From Centroscyllium fabricii (Eukaryota), in the NCBI GenBank assembly GCA_051313645.2, contig JBNRSN020000026.1, forward strand, positions 41,850,001 to 41,914,000: DNA of 64,000 bases. Reading direction: 5' to 3'. Positions 10,533 through 61,652 of this stretch are shown in pieces; the first letter of the stretch is position 1; each line of letters opens with the position of its first letter. The translations under genes and the position numbers were made by a program. Under the pieces are notes generated by a model that saw nothing but the letters and a program-made list of their open reading frames with translations, had not been told where the DNA came from and made no database searches.

Positions 10533-10880
10533 AAAATAGACCCGTGTGTGTCGTCATCACGCCCACTCACGTTATTTGGTCGGGAAACCCGAAGGTCATG
10601 TTCAAATGCATTGGCTGGTTCTAAAAGCCACTGACAAACACACTGCAGGTACTTCTGGGTTTTCCACACGCTACCAGACGCACCCCCCACCCCCCCCCCC
10701 CGCATCTCCCTGACCCTGTTCCTAGCGCGTCTTCAGGTAAATATTCCGGCCCTCGTGTCCACACATATACACTTTCCAGCAGGGCTCACTGCATAGCAAT
10801 CAGAGGCTGAAAGCTTAGCTGATATTTACCTTCCCTAGCCTGGGAGCACTGAAGCCAAGAGTGGAGCCTCAATCAGTATA

Positions 10881-11761
10881 CAGGTTGAGCACCGTTAATC
10901 CGGTAACCGAATAGCCGGCAGCTTCAGTCTGCCGGCACAAATTGCCCCGACTGCACTGCGCATGCGCAAAATGGCAGCCGCCATCGTGGCTTCAACGAAT
11001 GATCTGCGCATGCGCCGAGCGCATGCGCAGATCATTCAAAACAGCTGCGGGTGTTTTGAATGATCTGCGCATGCGTCGCCGGAAGGTTAGCGCATGCGCA
11101 GATAATTCAATACGGCCGCCGGTTATTTTATCGATAACTGTAATTGAAGCCATGATGTGGAGGTGCTGGTGTTGGACTGGGATGGACAATTGTAAGAAGC
11201 CACACAGCACCAGGCTGTAGTCCAAAAGTCCCACTCGAAATCACGGGCCTTCGGAGCGCCGCTCCCCCATCACCTGACGGGGAAGCGGCGCTCCGAAAGC
11301 CCGTGACCCCAACTAAAACCGTTGGACCACAGCCTGGCGCCGTGTGACCTCTTACAATTGAAAGCAAAACAGGGGATTGGATAAATTGCCCCCCCGCCGA
11401 CCCGCGCCACCCTCCTTTCCCCCCCCCCCACCCGACCCGACCCGCGCCTTCCTCCTTCCCCCCCCCCCCCGACCCGCGCCACCCTCCTGCCTCCCCCCGC
11501 AAGACCGGCCTTTCACTGCTGCCCGACAGCCCTAAAACCTAAACGGAACGCCACAAAAGCCTGAGCCCATCAAAAAACTTCGCGGCGGCCAATATTGGAC
11601 GATCTGCGCATGCGCGCGCCAGCCAATACCAATGTTGCGCGCATGCGCGCTGCCATTTTGACTGGTGCGCATGCGCAGTGTCCAAACTCGTTCTCCCGGT
11701 TTTTTCCATTTCCCGGCACGGGCCTGGTCCCGCCCGTGCCCGATTAACGGTGCTCAACCTG
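10881..11761. mobile_element. Tc1/mariner (Tigger/pogo-like) MITE containing a Penelope hairpin
   Basis: TIR CAGGTTGAGCACCGTTAATC at both ends, TA TSD. Confidence 0.85.
11152..11359. mobile_element. Penelope-like hairpin insertion, hypermutated
   Basis: Homologous to 17288-17454 and 35532-35867; inverted arms of about 85 bp plus a 36-nt unpaired extension. Confidence 0.8.
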
Positions 11762-12627
11762 TACTGAGATCCACAAACCCAGCACAAATCCTGCTCTGTA
11801 AGGGCCATTACCAATTACAAGGTGCAAATTACCCATTAGCAACTGAGGAGCCCGACTGCTGTTCATTTTCACTTTGAAACAGTTAATAACCATTGATAAT
11901 GCAAAGCCCATAGGTTCTTTTAACAGGGAATAAGAGTGTTGCATGAAAAAGAACAATAATAAAGGGCATGGAGAGTGAGCAGGAGATTGGAATTAGACTA
12001 GATGGCTCATGTGCAGAAAAACATTGATGCAAGAGTTAATAGGATGTATGACCTATTTCAATGCGATAACATTTAAATTATGCTGCCAGATGTATTCCAG
12101 TCACAGCAATAATAGAATAGCCATGATTAGTACTTAATTTACTGACAAAGGATGCAGGGGTTTATTGACCACCTATAGAGACCCTGTTATCATCTTTATA
12201 ACACAACAGGGGGCCAATTTTGATATGACCTTTTTCATCAGGCAAGACGCAGACAGAGAGAGCCTGTGGCCTGCCCAATGAAAGCAGTCACAGGCCCAAA
12301 CCATTTTGACAGTTTGAAGGGATAATTACTAGTCCTAGCCCCTTTAGGGCTAGTCTGGATCAAGCGTATTCCTCAGACATTCACTTTCAACTAAAGGTTG
12401 AGTTAGCCGAATCCTAAAGAAGCTTAATTGGGTCTGGACTATCTCGCCCTAAAGAAAAGGAACAACCTGAAAATGTTACCGTCCTCCAGATAGCAATTTT
12501 AATAAGTTTATCTCCTTATGGCCAAGGGGTATGGACAGTAATTCTTCTGGATAAAAAGAATAGGAATCTCAAAGTCCCTGCTACTATCACCATCACAGCT
12601 GAGGATTGTCGGGATGTTCCTTTTTTA

Positions 12628-15256: not shown

Positions 15257-15759
15257 TGTGACTCTATCCATGACAAATGATTACTCCCTCCAGTTAATCA
15301 ATGGAATGAAAATCGGTCGGGCAGTTTCTATAACTGGGGAGCAATCCACTCCACCAGGTTATCTCCCAACTGGTGACGTTGGAAATTAACCCCATTGCCT
15401 CTTGCACAAGCTCCAAAAGACTGTGCACTTGAATTCAGTCAGTTCTAATGTTTGGTTTGTCACTGTCACGGATGTTGATGTAAGAAAACTACTAGGCACT
15501 TGGGTCTAAGCGTTAAACAAAGCTTTAATCAACTGTTTTACAACATGAAGGTCTAGTTGTGTCCTTCACTAGTTCCTGTTAAGAATGCCCTGCGTAAGCT
15601 GGGCCCATGCCCGAGTATTTATACTCTCCCTGGACAGCGCCACTCGCAGGCCGCTCAGTATTATTTCATAAGTCTTTATTTCATGAATGACTGATTCATG
15701 TCAGATGTATCTTGCCAATTTTTGTTCTCTTTTTATTTTCCTTCATTGTTGTGCCTATA

Positions 15760-16122
15760 CAGGTAGCGCACCATTATTCCGACATCGTCAGGACCAGGCC
15801 GGTGCCGGACTAGTGAAAAATCCAAACGACTGAAAAATCCAAACGACTGAAGGTTCGGCAAGCGCATGCGCAGGCCATTCAAAATGGCCACCGCGCATGC
15901 ACAGACCATTCAAAATGGCCACTACGCATGCGCAAACCATTCAAAATGGCCACTGTGCATGCACTGACCATTCAAAATGGCCACTACGCATGCGCAGACC
16001 AATCGGGGAGAGACCCGCGCATCGCGAGCGTCCCTGGAATCACGTGGGCCAGCCAGACGGATTTGTGCCGGACCACTGAAGTTGCCAGACCATCGGGTCC
16101 CAGATTAACGGTGCACAGACGG
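15760..16122. mobile_element. Tigger-like MITE (degenerate) with 31-bp tandem repeat
   Basis: TA|CAGGT..GCACC start; about 4 copies of CGCATGCGCAGACCATTCAAAATGGCCAC at 15863-16000. Confidence 0.7.
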
Positions 16123-16587
16123 CACATTATTTTCCATCCTATATGCAGCAGCTGGAATGAGGGACATTGCTTTCATTTCTCAATGACTTCTACCAATTGT
16201 GGGCATTTTCCATCAGTCACTTCGCCTGCTGGCTCCTTACCGTTTGTCAGACTCATTAAACAAATGACTCGCAGTAATAAATAATTATAGCAGAACTACA
16301 AAGGCAGCACCCATGGCTCAAAATGAGTAATGTACTTCAACGTGGTCTGTTCACCCCCTTTTTTCATTACATGTAAAACAAAATTGTGTGTGATGCCTGA
16401 GACAGAAATACAAGAACATAAAGCAATGCTACATAAAGGACAGAATCTGGCAATTATTCAGTGGTGGCACAAATTAGTGATTACCTGAGGGACATGCATT
16501 CAGAAAGACTATTATTCAGCCCTGGCCTCTGTGCGAGGTTTTGCTGGCTGTTGATTCTGACTTAGGTAGCAATGGTGAAAGTGAATA

Positions 16588-17217
16588 CAGCTCCGACACC
16601 GTTAATCCGGCACGGTCAGGACCAGGCCGGTGCTGAACTGGTGAAAAATCCGAACGACTGAAGCTTCGGCGAGCGCATGCGCAAACCATTCAAAATGGCC
16701 TCCAGGAATGGTCTGCAAATGCGCTCACCGAAGCATCAATCGTTCGGACTAACTCAGTAGGAGTCTTGCATGTCCCTTTATTATTCTTCCCACCTTCCCC
16801 TCCCCCCCGTAGATTTGGATTCCCTCATACCTCTTTGCCATCGATTTCCTCAGAGTACATCAGTTCATATTTGCATGCGCAGACCAGTCGGGGAGAGGCC
16901 CGGGCATGCGCAGCCAAACGCGGTGGCCAATTTGCGCATGCGCAGACCAGTCGGGGAGAGGCCCGGGCATGCGCAGCCAAGCGCGGTGGCCAATTTGCGC
17001 ATGCGCAGACCAGTCGGGGAGAGGCCCGGGCATGCGCAGCCAAGCGCGGTGGCCAATTTGCGCATGCGCAGACCAGTCGGGGAGAGGCCCGGGCATGCAC
17101 AGCCAAGCGCGGTGGCCATTTTGCGCATGCGCAGACCAGTCGTGGAGAGGCCCGGATTCGTGCCGGACGACTGAAGTTTCCGGATTAACAGTGTCCAGAT
17201 TAACGGTGCCGGACCTG
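16588..17217. mobile_element. Tigger-like MITE with 63-bp tandem repeat
   Basis: TIR CAG.TCCG.CACCGTTAATC, TA TSD; about 4.5 x 63-bp units at 16872-17155. Confidence 0.85.
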
Positions 17218-17287
17218 TAATAGAGAGGAGTTGGGTTTTTTGTTCAAGAGCACAGGCACAGTGGTGATGAAAGGGTATATTATTAGT

Positions 17288-17454
17288 CACACATCACCAG
17301 GTTATAGTCCAACAGTTTTATTTGAAATCACACCTGATGAAGGAGCTACGCTCCAAAAGCTTATGACTGCAAATAAAACTGTTGGACTATAACCTGACGT
17401 GTGTGACTTCTTACAATTGTCCACCCCAGTCCAACACCAGCACCTCCACATCAT
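17288..17454. mobile_element. Penelope-like 3'-end insertion
   Basis: 13-bp TSD GTATATTATTAGT; short inversion; decayed hammerhead core CTGATGA..AAAA. Confidence 0.8.
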
Positions 17455-17549
17455 GTATATTATTAGTGAACTAGGAGGATGAGAGCACGGCTCAGGTGCA
17501 GAGTGTATCAGACCTAGGAGGTGCATGAAGGATGTGTTGCCATCATATG

Positions 17550-34450: not shown

Positions 34451-35157
34451 CAGGTTGGGCAGCACGGTGGCACAGCGGTTAGCACTGTTGTCTCACAGCA
34501 CTGGAGACCCGGGTTCAAATCCAGCCTCGGGTACTATCTGTGGAGTTTGCACATTCTCCCCGTGTCTGCGTGGGTTTCCTCCGGGTGCTCCGGTTTCCTC
34601 CCACAATCCAAAGATGTGCAGGTTAGCTTGATTGGCCATGCTAATTTGACCCTTAGTGTTAGGGGGATTGAATATGTGGGGTTGCGGGGATAGGGTGGGA
34701 TATGTGTCAGTTAGGGATCGAGGGATGTGGGGAGAGGGCAGGGGCGGGGTACTGGGTTTGGATGATCAGCCATGATCTCATTGAATGGCGGAGCAGGCTC
34801 GAAGGGCCGAATGGCCTACTCCTGCTCCTAGTTTCTATGTTTCTAGGTTGAGCGCCGTTAATCCGGCACCCTCATGACCAGGCCGGTGCCGGACCTCTGA
34901 AAATTCTGAACCACTGAAGGTTCGGGGGAGCGCGCGGGTAGAACACTCCCCGGGAGGGAGCCAGGGATAGAACACTTAGAGAACCTGAAAAAACAGAAAC
35001 ACAAACGCCCAACGCCTTCGGCGCTCGCTCACCCTTCCCGGGAAATGGTGGTGCCACCGAGCGGCTGCTCTGCAAAATGAAGAGTGCTGGTTTCCAATCA
35101 TGCCGGACCACTGAAGCTGCTGGACCATCGGGTGCCGGATTACCGGTGCTCAACCTG
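34451..35157. mobile_element. Tigger-like MITE with left TIR split by a V-SINE
   Basis: TA|CAGGTT..GAGCGCCG / CCGGTGCTCAACCTG|TA. Confidence 0.8.
34457..34844 (+). mobile_element. HE1-like V-SINE, tail type 2
   Basis: tRNA head, V-domain, HER1 tail; AGGTT duplicated on both sides. Confidence 0.9.
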
Positions 35158-35531
35158 TATCGTGATTTAGGTTTAAATAATATTCCAGATTTACCTCCTC
35201 TATACTGTTTGCATGGATTTACAAAAGATAAATCGTGCTTGACTAATCTACTGGAATTTTTTGAGGATGTAACTGGTAGAATAGATAAGGGAAAACCAGT
35301 GGATGTGGTGTATTTGGACTTTCAGAAGGCTTTCGATAAGGTCCCGCATAAGAGATTATTGTGCAAAGTTAAGGCACATGGGGTTGGAGGCAAGGTACTG
35401 ACTTGAATAGAGAACTGGTTGGCAGACAGGAAGCAAAGAGTTGGAATAAACGGGTCTTTATCCGAGTGGCAGGCAGCGACTAGTGGGGTACCGCAGGGAT
35501 CGGTGCTAGGACCCCAGCTATTCACAATATA

Positions 35532-35867
35532 TGTGATGTGGAGGTGCCGGTGTTGGACTGGGGTGGACAAATGCAAGAAGTCACACAACAGCAGGTTATA
35601 GTCCAACAGTTTTACTTGAAATCACAAGCTTTTGGAGCGCTGCTCCTTCCTCAGGTGAAAGAGAAGTTCATTTAAAGACAGCATATATACAAGGGAGAGA
35701 GCAATCTAATCTGTAACCTTGGAGAGATTACACTGCTCTCTCCCTTGTATATATGCTGTCTTTAAATGAACTTCTCTTTCACCTGAGGAAGGAGCAGCGC
35801 TCCGAAAGCTTGTGATTTCAAATAAAATTGTTGGACTATAACCTGCTGTTGTGTGACTTCTTGCATT
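35532..35867. mobile_element. Penelope-like hairpin insertion in CR1
   Basis: Near-perfect inverted arms of about 135 bp plus unpaired extension; 13-bp TSD TATTCACAATATA. Confidence 0.85.
35779..35815 (+). ncRNA. Minimal type I hammerhead ribozyme motif
   Basis: tcac-CTGAGGA-a-ggagc-agc-gctcc-GAAA-gc-TT-gtga: helix I tcac/gtga, helix II ggagc/gctcc, palindromic AGCT helix III. Confidence 0.7.
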
Positions 35868-36862
35868 TATTCACAATATAGATTAATGATCTAGACAAGG
35901 GAACTAGATATAATATCTCCAAGTTTGCAGATGACACAAAGCTGGGTGGGCGTGTGTGCTGTGAGAAGGATGCCAAGAAACTCCAGTATGATTTGCACAG
36001 GTTGGGTGATTGGGCAGAAGCATGGCAGATGCAATATAATGTGGATAAATGCGAGGTTATCCAGTTTGGTGGCAAAAACAGGAAGGCAGATTATTATCTG
36101 AATGGCAATAGATTGGGAGAAGGGGAACTGCAACAAGACCTGGGTGTCTTTATGCACCAGTCGCTGAAGGTAAGCATTCAGGTGCAGCAGGCAGTTAAGA
36201 GGGCAAATGGTATGTTGGCATTCATAGCAAGAGGATTTGAGTACAGGAGCAAGGATGTCTTGCTGCAGTTGTATGGGGCCTTGGTGAGGCCACATCTTGA
36301 GTATTGTGTGCAGTTTTGGTTGCCTTATCTGAGGAAGGATGTTCTTGCCATGAAGGGAGTGCAACGAAGATTCACCAGACTGATACCTGGGATGGCAGGA
36401 ATGACGTATGAGGAGAGATTGGGTCGATTGGGCTTATACTCGCTGGAGTTTGGAAGAATGAGAGGGGATCTCATTGAAACTTTAAAAATTCTAACAGGAC
36501 TAGACAGACTAGGTGCAGGAAGGATGTTCCCGATGGCGGGGGAGTCCAGAACCAGGGGTCACAGTCTAAAGACAAGGGGTAAGCCATTTAGGACAGACGA
36601 GGGGGAATTTCTTCACCCAGAGAGTGGTGAACCTGTGGAATTCTCTACCACAGAAGGCAGTTGAGGCCAATTCATTAAATATATTCAAGACGGAGTTAGA
36701 TATATTTCTTGAGACTAAAGGGATCAAGGGATATGGGGAGAAAGCAGGGACCGGGTACTGAATTTGGATGATCGGCCATGATCTCATTAAATGGCGGAAC
36801 AGGCTCGAGGGGCTGAATGGCCTATTCCTGCTCCTATCTTCTATGTTTCTATGTTTCTATCT

Positions 36863-40110: not shown

Positions 40111-40870
40111 CTAAGCTCAAAAAAGTAGATTTAAAAAATACTGATTGAGGGGGAAGGGTACCTTATGAGAAATATTATAAAATGCGTCTCTGCCTCAAGT
40201 TTTCAGAAATCTGATTTGTGCAGAAGATAAAATCTTGCCTCATTTCCAATGAGTTTCTTTTCCCAAAGTTACGTGATTTATAGTTCTGACATTACACTTA
40301 CATATTTGAAATGGAGGCAGATCTGTTGTGAAAACTAATGAGTGCAGCGTATTCCCTGTGCTGATTGCAAAATAAAAGACAAGTATTAATATTCATGGCT
40401 ACCCCCATCTTTGTGATTGAAATACTGAAGTAATGAAATGCAGTTTGTCAGTGCACTGCAGGATAACACATAACCATCAGGCAAGGCATTATGGTTTGGG
40501 GATTTGCGTTTACAGCAGGCTTTGGAAGTGCCAGTCACTGTGTTACCATTAACCTTCATTTTATTTCTGTTTAAATGTTTCTTCCATTCTTTTCCTCCTC
40601 CTCTCAATATTCAAACCCAGAGCCCTACAGCCTATTAATCCGCTGTGAGACAAAGGATTAGCTACGGTGTATCGCAAGTAAACAAAGTGATAATACCATT
40701 TGTGATTTATAGTAACTTTCTCTGCAAGATGTGCTGCCTTGCTCCCTAAGGAAAGCAATCTTAACTTGTTCAATATTATCCGTGCACTTTCATGCAATGA
40801 ACCAATTTGCAGCTACTGGAGACCTTTGGCAGGGATATACTTCAGCATCAGAAATATTTTCAGATATACA

Positions 40871-41170
40871 CCGGTTGAACACCGGTAATTCGGCACCCTC
40901 GGGACCAGGCCGGTGCTGGGGCATTGAAAATTCCGAACCACTGAAGGTTCGGTGGGAGCACGGGTAGAACACTCCCCGGGGAGGAAGCCCGGGGATAGAA
41001 CACTTACAAGATCTAAAAAAGCAGCAACCCAAACGCCCGACGCCTTTGGCGCTCGCCCACCCTTCGCGGGAAATGGTGGCACCGCCGAGCGGCTGCTCCG
41101 CAAACTGAAGACCGCCGGTTTCCATTCGTGCCGGACCACTGAAGGTGCCGGATTACCGGTGCTCAACCTG
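40871..41170. mobile_element. Tigger-like MITE
   Basis: Homologous to 34845-35157; right TIR GGTGCTCAACCTG|TA. Confidence 0.8.
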
Positions 41171-41177
41171 TACCTGC

Positions 41178-48854: not shown

Positions 48855-50834
48855 TTACAGAGAGCCGACACGGGCTCGACATGCTGAATGACCTGCTTCT
48901 GTGCTGTAACCATTCTATGGGGGAAAAATTCGGTATCGCCCTGTTTGGGGCGCTGTTCTGGGTTGTGCACAAAGTTCAGCGCCTGCCGTTAATTATCGCC
49001 TCCAACTGCAAACTTAGCTTTTAATGCCCCTGGAGGTGATTGGAGCGCTAAATCAACACTACACACCTCTCTTAAGGCACAAAGGCTGATGAGCGAGGCG
49101 TTACCTCAGACCGCTAGCAAAGCTCATGTGATGTCAGTCAGCAATGGAACACAGACACACTGGCATCATCCAATTCTTAAAGGAGAGTTCTAACAAATGG
49201 TCATCGACCTGAAATGTTGGGGGAGATTTTCATGTCCCCGTGAGGTGGGGCTTTGGGCGGCCCGGCCAGCAACATTGCGGAACCGGCGGGTCCCGCCCCT
49301 CCCCACCATATCCCCGCCACTTTCTCATTTTCCCCCGCCCAGATTCCCCGCCCCGAAACCTTCCCGCCGCCGACTGGCGGCGATGGGTTGTCACCTCGTT
49401 AAGGGCCCTTAATTGGCATCTTTAATGCCATTTTAAGGGCCCTCAGCCTATTTGCCGTGTTTCCCGCCCTAACCCCGCCACCTTAAACCCCGCTGGGTGA
49501 AACCCAGCGGGAGCACAGTGCTGGTTATTACTTCTGGACTATAACCTGGTGTTGTGTGACTTCTTGAATTTATTACTTTCTCCTTTAAGGTGTGAAGAAC
49601 ATGCTGCCAAATGCTTGGCATGCCTCCAGCACCTTAGAGGAGATAGTAACTCCGTTCTGGTTTCAGCATCAGCTGAGAACAGAAACTGAGCAATCTCAGA
49701 TCTCACCATGTCCTCACAGCCGGTGCCGAGCTGTGAAGGATTCGGAGCCTGCCCGCCCACCTGTCAATCACCACCACTTGGCCTTTCCCATTGGCTCCAT
49801 TCCACTGTGATGTCACAGTGGAGTGTTGCCATGGGACCTGACAACAACCAGTGCTGGAACTGTCAATCAAAGTGCTCACAGCTCCGCTGCAGCCCGACTC
49901 GATTGACCTAATTACCTCCCGCTCCTGCCGGCGGATATTTAATAACCTCATTAACCTAAAATTGCGTGGCCTTCCCAACTGTTTGGGCGGGTGGGACCAG
50001 AAGCTATGACTCTATGGGGGCTAAATTGGTCAGCCCACGTTTTGTGGCGCTGACCTGGACGCTGCGCTATTTTTAGTGCCAGCCCATCGCTGGCGCTGCT
50101 GGTGCCGAAATTCGCCTGCATCGCCCAGCTAAAGCAGGCTGGCCGCCTCGATCTTGGTGCGAGACGGCTGAATATCGGGGCGTGGGCGCGTCGCTGCGCC
50201 AAGGAGCACATAGCGGCGGACCACGGTACTGCAGGCCTTCCTCCCCAGTTAAAGGGGAGGGGCCTAGCACAGCTGCGGCCCGAGCCCCGCGGAGCCGCTA
50301 TGGGAGCAGACTCGTCAGAAGGAGCCCGGCACTGGAGGGAAGTGACGGGCTTAGTTGCCGGAGGCCTGACCCCGCCGGGGAGCAGCGGGGGAGGCCAAGG
50401 GGGAAGGTGCTGGCAGTCAGCCAGCAATAAAAATGGCCGACCGCCACACTCCCCTTTAAGCAGCGCTCCCCTGCTGCTGCTATGGCTCCAAAAAGCTGCC
50501 GCGGGCGGCGCCCAGCGATAAATCGGCGGGCGCTGCCCAATTACAGCTGTAGGCGCCTCCCGGGCACTGCATGGGCTGATGACGTCATTCCCGACGTCCA
50601 GCTGGGCGCTAAATTCATTGGGGCAGAACCAGTTATCCCCCAACTTAGCGCTCAGCTGAATTTCGCGCTGGAGGGGAGCGCCAGCGCTAATTCTGTAGCG
50701 CCTGATTAGCGCCTGTAATGTTACTATCTTAACATTAAATTACTGAGAGCCACACGAGATGAGATTCACTCAAGTACTTTTAATTAGATCTGAATTCCTT
50801 GCTTGCTCAGTGCACTCTCCCCATGTGGCCAAGG

Positions 50835-60555: not shown

Positions 60556-61652
60556 TAACATAAGAACATAAGAAATACAGGTCCGACACCAATAATCCAG
60601 CACCGGCAGGACCAGGCCGGTGCCGGACTGGTGAAAAATCCGAACGATTGAAGCTTCGGCGAGTGCATGTGCAGACCATTCAAAATGGCCGGCGCGAAGG
60701 CCGACGGTGATTTTGAATGGTCTGCGCATGCGCTCGCCGAAGCATCAATCGTTCAGGGAGGCCCGCGCATGCGCAGCCAAACACGGTGGCCATTTTGCAC
60801 ATGCGCAGACCAGTCTGGCAGTCAGGGAGAGGCCCGCGCATGCGCAGCCAAGCACAGTGGCCATTTTGCACATGCGCAGACCAGTCGGGCAGTCGGGGAG
60901 AGGCCCGGGCATGCGCAGCCAAGCGCGGTGGCCATTTTGCACATGCGCAGACCAGTCTGGCAGTCAGGGAGAGGCCCGGGCATGCGCAGCCAAGCGCGGT
61001 GGCCATTTTGCGCATGCGCAGACTAGTCTGGCAGTCAGGGAGAGGTCCGGGCATGCGCAGCCAAGCGCGGCAGCCATTTTGCGCATGCGCAGACCAGTCG
61101 TCCGGGTTCGTTCCGGACGACCGAAGTTTCCGGATTACCGGTGTCCGGATTAATGGTGCCGGACCTGTAGGAGCTGGAATAGGCCAATTGGCCCCTCGAA
61201 CATGCTCCGTCATTCAATAAGATCATGGCTGATCTTGGGCTCAAAGGCAGTTCCTTACCTGCTCCCCATAACCCTTCACTCCCTTATCTTGCAAAAATCT
61301 GTCTATCTCCACCTTAAATATATCAAATGACACAACCTCCACAGTTCTCTGGGGCAGAGAATTGCAAAGATTTACGACCCTCTGAGAGAAGAAATTCCTC
61401 CTCATCTCAGTTCTAAAAGGGCGACCCTTTTATTCTGAAACTATGCCCCCGAGTTCTAGATTTCCCCACGAGGGGAAACATCCTCTCTGCATCTACCTTG
61501 TCGAGCCCCGTCAGTATCTTATATGTTTCAATAAGATCACCTCTCATTCTTCTCAATTCCAATGAGTAGAGGCCCAACCTGTTCAACCTTTCTTCACAAG
61601 TCAACCCCCTCATCTCAGGAACCAACCGTGTGAATCGTCTCTGAACTGCCTC
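60556..61652 (-). mobile_element. CR1 3' end
   Basis: ORF 61413-61625; (TTCTTATG)n tail at 60556-60577. Confidence 0.85.
60578..61167. mobile_element. Tigger-like MITE with 71-bp tandem repeat, inserted in a CR1 tail
   Basis: TIR CAGGTCCG.CACCA.TAATCC, TA TSD. Confidence 0.87.

Follow-up and report, generated by a model that had tools for sequence, protein, structure and literature searches.

A Penelope-like hairpin inside a cut-and-paste MITE carries a footprint that probably records ADAR-type editing of RNA

Introduction

DNA transposons are assumed to lack an RNA stage. In the 64,000-nt stretch of Centroscyllium fabricii DNA analysed here (the window; contig JBNRSN020000026.1 of assembly GCA_051313645.2, positions 41,850,001 to 41,914,000), an inverted pair of Penelope-like element (PLE) ends at 11152-11360 lies within a TA-flanked MITE, and its stem carries clustered, strand-biased substitutions of the kind expected from ADAR. 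The locus raises the question of how an RNA-type change could enter the lineage of a DNA transposon. A fossil series of MITE copies with such a footprint acquired after hairpin capture would be direct evidence of RNA-to-DNA flow.

Results

The MITE and its Penelope-like ends

The host element (Table 1) has terminal inverted repeats of 23 nt with a TA on either side, and its four open reading frames are all short (80–124 amino acids, the longest being 124). The original prediction had left open whether other MITE copies carry the same edited hairpin, and they do: the edited arm has 2,962 pattern matches in the 7.2-Gb genome, and 30 of 30 fetched matches lie in the same MITE at unrelated sites with TA ahead of the left repeat. 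A pattern for the MITE left flank has 2,687 matches, and 12 odd loci that were fetched were family A copies or deletions only. The TA target duplication, terminal inverted repeats, dispersed sites and lack of a transposase of its own identify a Tc1/mariner MITE, which we take to be of the pogo/Tigger-like type. The window copy is identical to the family A majority in the blocks compared, and the MITE is young. Related MITEs with GCGCATGCGC units and internal tandem repeats of 63–71 nt lie in the same window at 16584-17219, 34846-35171, 40862-41172, 60571-61169 and 15757-16117.

Table 1. Features of the MITE in the window and of the Penelope-like hairpin that it contains
Feature	Positions	Strand	Remarks
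Family A MITE, non-autonomous, Tc1/mariner-type	10879..11763		885 nt counting both TA
Left terminal inverted repeat, TA before	10881..10903	+	Same in 30/30 fetched copies
Short internal MITE hairpins made of GCGCATGCGC units	10950..11135		No T>C excess versus empty MITE
Target duplication of PLE insertion, left 11-nt copy	11142..11152	+	Single in empty MITEs; identical pair in unedited copies and family B
Unpaired PLE 'tail', optional 3' extension of pLTR	11153..11186	-	Without T>C
Arm 1, PLE end, sense on minus	11187..11272	-	Versus PLE majority, on plus strand: 11 T>C, 4 A>G
Putative minimal hammerhead relic (helix I, core, helix II, palindromic 15.2-16.2)	11270..11306	+	
Arm 2, inverted tail-less PLE end, sense on plus	11275..11360	+	Versus PLE majority, on plus strand: 12 T>C, 4 A>G
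Target duplication, right copy	11356..11366	+	5-nt overlap with arm end; 11364 altered in family A
C-rich variable tandem region	11388..11500	+	Stands in for internal part of older family members
Right terminal inverted repeat, TA after	11739..11761	-	Repeat in 29/30 fetched copies, TA in 28

The two arms of the hairpin are 86 nt long and 79% complementary. Compared with the PLE ends described in PMC3846280 and PMC11167929, the insertion likewise has an inverted pLTR, the optional tail of 30–40 nt defined in those two papers (one-sided and 34–36 nt here) and a short target-site duplication (TSD) at an AT-rich site, and in unedited PLE ends the layout appears, by eye, to agree with the minimal hammerhead motif of PLEs described in PMC4209133. 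Sister copies may also contain GIY-YIG-like coding sequence. Unlike full Penelope/Poseidon-like elements, the window MITE has just the two ends. A 201-amino-acid frame at the sister locus L095 has Atlas look-alikes at 0.96, with GIY-YIG in 18–27% of members, which is a lead and not proof; Pfam gave nothing for two PLE frames, this one among them, and an Rfam search of the window, hammerhead relic included, gave no match. Unedited PLE ends are abundant, a 35-mer having 91,046 exact matches in the genome, and sister copies lie within the window at 17285-17455, 35526-35874 and 49530-49574. The copy at 35526-35874 is an unedited inverted pair whose arms run through the interior, and it sits in LINE-like sequence.

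Substitutions in the window hairpin

Changes in the window stem were scored against the majority sequence of 30 unedited PLE ends from the genome. On the plus strand the stem differs from it by 23 T>C and 8 A>G and, where columns are invariant, by 3 changes of other kinds (11226, 11283 and 11313), close to the roughly 24, 8 and 3 first counted by hand; the T>C number becomes 24 if the polymorphic column 11278 is included. The background of A>G and T>C in unedited PLE copies is 18 of 1,683 sites (1.1%). All 8 A>G face a T>C in the opposite arm, as had been claimed, and changes unique to one arm comprise 15 T>C versus 0 A>G. The true unedited founder described below already had C at 11230 and 11278, and T>C at 11355 is an additional edit. 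As RNA, the minus strand of the hairpin folds into a near-continuous, G:U-rich stem (−162.6 kcal/mol) and the plus strand into a broken one (−118.4 kcal/mol). The hammerhead core is indeed destroyed, as the original prediction stated from a change in the core, but the order of events needs refinement: U16.1 was lost at 11301 in the first edit set, before A9 at 11280 in the second.

The same footprint at non-MITE ends

Search patterns requiring a pair of A>G changes, or a pair of T>C changes, at UA sites had 62 and 55 matches respectively, 117 in total, versus the 91,046 exact unedited matches. Examination of 61 loci (60 of the 117 matches and L102), from which 4 MITE copies and 6 duplicates were dropped, left 51 non-MITE PLE ends, of which 35 were hypermutated, each with three or more additional changes of matching type. 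The controls were the partner arms, the tail and the 16 loci without hypermutation. At 22 loci with an edited inverted partner, unselected paired sites were changed at 335 of 723 positions (46%) versus 4 of 96 in the unpaired tail. The claim that the unpaired extension lacks T>C thus gains its strength from these pooled independent loci, since in the window tail itself (11152-11186) 0 of 9 T were changed (p=0.046), which is weak alone. In partner arms outside the search pattern, the expected polarity was found at 216 of 468 sites versus 7 of 463 for the opposite polarity, and either strand can be the edited one. A further 20 loci, chosen because their matched string held extra edits, included 18 hyper-edited ends and 2 copies of this MITE, and capture rates of partner arms (3/10) give a rough estimate of a few hundred edited ends genome-wide.

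The frequency of editing depended on the 5' neighbour, being highest after U (52/80, 0.65) and A (211/342, 0.62), lower after C (98/254, 0.39) and lowest after G (55/216, 0.25; p=3e-13), so that the expected depletion of 5'-G holds at non-MITE loci. The order agrees with that published for ADAR in PMC8586724. In the MITE hairpin the trend is similar on small numbers (5/9, 10/17, 5/13 and 3/11 for U, A, C and G). ADAR is the enzyme suggested by the 46% density, the confinement to duplex and the order of 5' neighbours.

Among 23 edited hairpins that have a downstream partner, 13 carry a TSD immediately at the canonical PLE ends. Several three-armed PLE structures have one of two possible partners edited (L111, L118-L120, L124, L126, L127, L149 and L152), and the L118-type structure has multiplied as a larger repeat. 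Two solo arms, L115 and L121, have A>G on the antisense PLE strand and adjoin the same SINE in sense orientation; the stretch downstream of L115 is strikingly A-poor. L309 and L313, considered as a second double-polarity hairpin, both proved to be copies of this MITE.

An ordinary PLE subfamily, GC-biased conversion, TpA-type hypermutation or an assembly error would also have to produce this pattern, which is vanishingly improbable, the only point in favour being that the changes run from AT to GC. A subfamily was rejected because three shared alleles together have one exact genome match, which lacks further edits. A strand-symmetric shift reaching into the flanks, as from GC-biased conversion, is contradicted by the strong strand bias and by clean MITE flanks. 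TpA-type repeat hypermutation is TA-specific and strand-symmetric, but here AA (62%) and CA (39%) contexts are heavily hit and on one strand only. The assembly artefact that the original prediction had named as a possible refutation is ruled out by the 2,962 matches and by contigs of the independent runs X1 and X7, from two studies, which cover the stretch piecewise, none of them spanning it whole. APOBEC editing of DNA was rejected as well, since it predicts G>A clusters on the sense strand and the changes here are A>G/T>C.

Evidence that the edited molecule was RNA

Three non-MITE loci, L143, L303 and L316, derive from a single hairpin insertion, share a flank and end in a SINE tail. They are 5'-truncated at three different points, two have target duplications of 7 and 8 nt and the third a partial one, and pairwise their hairpins show 3–10 C/T differences, on the copied strand. 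Since these are sibling retrocopies flanked by TSDs and carry different edits, editing acted on RNA. A fourth copy, L114, starts near a tail-less PLE end and has yet another edit set; it may be a PLE-primed copy or a disrupted source. A chimeric SINE-hairpin-flank transcript was retrocopied at least three times, each molecule being edited differently (L143, L114, L303 (=L321), L316 (=L322) and L323), and L322 and L323 are a 99.96% duplicate located 324 kb apart.

Edited solo PLE ends with 10-nt TSDs occur at L158 and L159, and no edited partner was found within 10 kb of either, or at any of the 10 solo loci checked. The insertion at L158:1454-1995 is a 530-nt solo PLE with a TSD and is edited in two stretches, at the end and 200–400 nt inside, with a nearly unedited stretch between them; the interior-extension comparison mixes partner arms with interior and was used for L158 only. 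At the non-MITE loci, the change was made on RNA. An RNA-level change in the MITE is suggested by the identity of its signature with that of these loci; no retrocopy of the MITE itself and no RNA read was seen. A search of sequencing runs listed no RNA data set containing the stretch, a result that does not bear on expression.

Deamination of adenine in DNA, through ADAR acting on an RNA:DNA hybrid, an unknown deaminase acting on an extruded hairpin or an error-prone polymerase, would need no RNA stage of the MITE, and ADARs are reported to deaminate dA in hybrids, best at dA-C (PMC5389660). We nevertheless regard it as very unlikely, because a hybrid does not predict A>G on one strand through both arms with the equally homologous tail spared, and because the retrocopies and solo insertions are edited on the copied RNA strand and have no partner at the locus. 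An error rate of 46% at A is not plausible for a polymerase.

A series of MITE copies before and after editing

Four stages of the same MITE were distinguished. In the first, empty-site MITEs contain the target sequence once, and eight of these were used for flank comparison. The second consists of four copies and one left-deleted copy with an unedited hairpin at the same site and an 11-nt TSD; the unedited-junction pattern has 14 matches, 5 in this MITE and 9 at unrelated PLE ends. In the third, family B, the same site and an identical 11-nt TSD are found with the T>C set alone (19 T>C), and its pattern has up to 304 matches, at least 100 of them exact. The fourth, family A, to which the window copy belongs, has the family B changes together with four additional T>C and the 8 A>G that restore pairs. 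All later stages keep TA and intact terminal repeats, and copy numbers along the series go from a handful to about 300 and then about 3,000. The existence of unedited and part-edited stages of the same insertion confirms that the window copy is the derived state, and the finding of 0 of the 8 A>G in family B confirms that this set came later than the T>C set. Guessed junction patterns gave 0 matches in one case and 6 family A point-revertants in the other.

Between the unedited founder and the earliest copies of family B, T>C occurred at 19 of 51 stem T (37%, one of the 51 being an alignment artefact) versus A>G at 1 of 52 A (p=2.6e-6), and the MITE flanks show 0–2 T>C per aligned block, not above other changes. 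From family B to the window copy, A facing C became G at 8 of 19 positions and A facing T at 0 of 30. The late T>C affect 4 of 31 T on one branch, a modest signal, given 7 other changes in 201 sites of its left flank. In a pattern-biased sample of 135 scored MITE loci, from which 4 partial loci and 7 duplicates were excluded (L181 and L217 being the same locus), 4 are unedited, 42 have the first set only, 64 have the full set and 16 lack one or two late sites; the rest are 4 true intermediates and 5 deletion copies with forced alignments. Non-CpG divergence from the class majority in the hairpin region falls along the series, from 0.93 to 0.69, 0.43 and 0.39%, the last being family A. In two small-share runs, and as leads only, a contig of X10 fits the family B arm-flank junction and a contig of X11 joins the MITE left flank to an unedited arm.

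A tree built from the flanks only (500 non-CpG columns, hairpin excluded, 48 rows, 3 skipped) places all insertion-bearing copies in one clade (support 96); inside that clade the edited copies group together (85), and family B in turn encloses the copies with A>G (100). The flanks thus repeat the order of the stages, which argues that editing came after capture of the hairpin by the DNA transposon. It could instead be supposed that the hairpin underwent a single editing event no later than its insertion, and that the unedited MITE copies were restored by conversion from PLE ends, with no RNA stage of the MITE. Conversion among MITE copies is evident and unedited PLE donors are abundant. The basal paraphyly of the unedited copies has weak support (45), so that editing at insertion followed by reversion is disfavoured by parsimony, the tree itself being compatible with it. 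It is nonetheless an unlikely history: all four unedited copies lack the first-set edits in both arms and the three family B transversions, their junction is preserved, as is the founder's C at 11230, which lies between sites that would have reverted, and they retain the long interior and the flank states of the empty MITE. The four later T>C are also left unexplained by a single early edit.

The late intermediates are mosaics, L271, L277 and L313 on one side and L215 and L217 on the other. L215 and L217 have most of the A>G and zero late T>C, and L271 and L313 carry the complete set of late T>C and are each short of two A>G. Because the intermediates conflict on the order of the late changes, conversion between MITE copies must have shuffled them, and a clean model of three rounds of editing, derived from L215 and L217, was rejected.

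Origin of the pair-restoring changes

The 8 A>G, and that set only, could also have come from DNA repair of an extruded hairpin, either by base excision at G:T or A:C or by arm-to-arm conversion. All 8 face C, 0 face T and 0 lie in the open bubble 11226-11240/11307-11321, and compensation is rare at single-copy edited loci (just 3 of 218). The lineage also contains pair-restoring transversions (11221 A>T and, on one path, 11287 T>G), and the unedited copies L229 and L238 have arm-matching variants; judged by sequence, these variants show that arm-to-arm correction at the DNA level occurs in the MITE lineage. However, repair does not readily account for the direction of the changes, all 8 having gone towards G:C with no first-set C reverted, or for their arrangement, since sites that changed are interspersed with sites that did not, and each arm serves as donor, which is not tract-like. 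Along the branch that leads to copies with A>G, the stem, tail and TSD together acquired 10 changes, of which 9 are A>G, two of these off-stem; the flanks acquired 6 changes over 529 sites, and 0 of those are A>G (misaligned right-flank counts of class S4 were left out). Apart from L181, L028 and subfamily columns, private A>G changes at A:C sites are few in present-day copies, and only 2 of the 8 A>G are in a TpG context, on which glycosylase preference bears. ADAR acting on RNA favours A:C mismatches. Given that DNA-level correction also occurs in this lineage, we consider ADAR on plus-strand RNA and DNA repair to be about evenly matched as sources of the A>G set, with repair itself at somewhat below an even chance.

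Discussion

Proposed mechanism

We propose that the MITE-borne PLE hairpin was probably edited in RNA, with ADAR as the likely enzyme, reverse-transcribed into a copy bearing both terminal inverted repeats and amplified by transposase. A PLE retroelement left an inverted pair of ends inside the cut-and-paste MITE, and ADAR would then have edited the hairpin in minus-strand, MITE-containing RNA to give the first set of 19 T>C. A later plus-strand RNA edited at A:C mismatches would have contributed the pair-restoring A>G set, and another minus-strand RNA might perhaps have given the four late T>C. A read-through transcript with the whole MITE would have been retrocopied by a LINE or PLE reverse transcriptase, transposase would have amplified the edited copy bearing both terminal repeats, and conversion between MITE copies would afterwards have shuffled patches. 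The central claim of the original prediction, that a minus-strand hairpin RNA was hyper-edited and written back into DNA, is supported by the one-strand, stem-restricted, ADAR-like pattern, and its corollary, that the hairpin went through RNA despite its MITE setting, is borne out and sharpened by the unedited copies of the same insertion in the same MITE.

The presence of unedited copies in the same MITE, together with the TA and terminal repeats of the later stages, implies that edited RNA was written into a copy bearing terminal inverted repeats. For the way back into DNA, we give retrocopying of a read-through, whole-MITE transcript by a LINE or PLE reverse transcriptase a chance just short of even; it relies only on processes observed here. 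A counterpoint is that the terminal repeats and short hairpins of the MITE are unedited, although editing of these would be expected in a whole-MITE RNA. Rewriting in place, which we consider possible but doubtful, would have a PLE protein bind edited MITE RNA at its PLE end, nick a genomic MITE and reverse-transcribe the hairpin there, or would have PLE cDNA convert a MITE copy, with flanks, TSD and terminal repeats untouched; the origin of the edits from ADAR would be the same. Such rewriting would suit the end of the edits at the hairpin boundary, the TSD at canonical PLE ends in 13 of 23 edited hairpins, the occurrence of both polarities among edited hairpins, a sense start being present on both hairpin strands, and the patchy mosaics, which resemble short conversion tracts. 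According to PMC11167929, PLE reverse transcriptase starts within RNA at two sites a tail-length apart and, in vitro, nicks AT-rich DNA, its own pLTR included. However, ordinary retrocopying that carried edited hairpins along with several hundred nt of flank is directly seen here, and it requires no new activity.

Retrocopying followed by transposase amplification leaves the success of edited copies to be accounted for: that rare edited copies should found successive bursts needs either selection or a very high level of MITE RNA. Plus-strand RNA pairing goes from −139 to −82 and then −110 kcal/mol along the series, and since it was weakened and then partly restored, these predicted values do not agree with selection favouring a weak hairpin; they would agree with drift from the PLE consensus. 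A speculative extension, which we hold to be doubtful, is that the PLE end makes the MITE a part-time retroelement, ADAR-edited RNA being written repeatedly, from either strand, onto copies bearing terminal inverted repeats by Penelope reverse transcriptase. Each rewrite would depart from the Penelope consensus and found a larger burst, and ADAR would offer an escape from silencing. If true, such rewriting would amount to RNA-templated evolution of a DNA transposon. The suggestion that editing served as a defence against ribozyme-bearing retroelements is unsupported, because edited ends are rare (117 versus 91,046) and the edited MITE grew to about 3,000 copies; nothing singles out the ribozyme, as against long duplexes in general, as what editing acts on.

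Relation to known systems

Hajjar & Linial (1995) and Felder et al. (1994) are said to have reported A-to-G hypermutation of avian retroviruses. As summarised in PMC12925331, ADAR-type A>G hypermutation of an inverted repeat became fixed in avian proviral DNA, and there likewise about 50% of A were changed to G and recorded via reverse transcription. Our case differs in that the carriers are germline PLE ends and a transposase-mobilised, non-retroviral MITE, and in that the changes build up along a lineage and with both polarities. The APOBEC 'DNA editing' of LTR retrotransposons described in vertebrate genomes by Knisbacher and Levanon (PMC4866542) is likewise a strand-biased, clustered deamination in repeat copies that is read against ancestral copies, but it produces G>A on cDNA, in contrast to the A>G in RNA duplexes considered here. 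DNA transposons are the negative control in that study, because they lack reverse transcription. Other Tc1/mariner MITEs resemble the present one in their TA duplication, short terminal inverted repeats, lack of transposase and successive deletion-derived bursts, and differ in that the lineage described here bears RNA-type edits gained after hairpin capture.

In the literature covered, mainly open-access and mostly as titles and abstracts, no report was found of ADAR editing in genomic PLE ends or in DNA transposons. Fixation of ADAR edits in DNA has precedent in retroviruses; editing along the lineage of a DNA transposon appears to be new, as judged from that literature. Edited PLE ends would place ADAR on RNA that reaches the germline genome. 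They also provide a natural strand label, indicating which strand was RNA and where copying began, and this label bears on how the inverted ends of PLEs arise and re-mobilise.

Minor features of the MITE lineage

The interior of the MITE at 10982-10995 has a 14-nt inverted match to the left TSD and tail at 11144-11157. This helix is absent from the fold of one family B copy. The derived G at 11149, an A>G in the left target duplication, faces C in the match, and L228 and L272 have A>G at 11152. In the terminal repeats, a T>A change (window 10879-10915 versus L170-L198 and L202-L228) reached the left end first, in the S4 copies, and the right end later. Changes in the left flank come in blocks, which suggests conversion from a sister MITE family.
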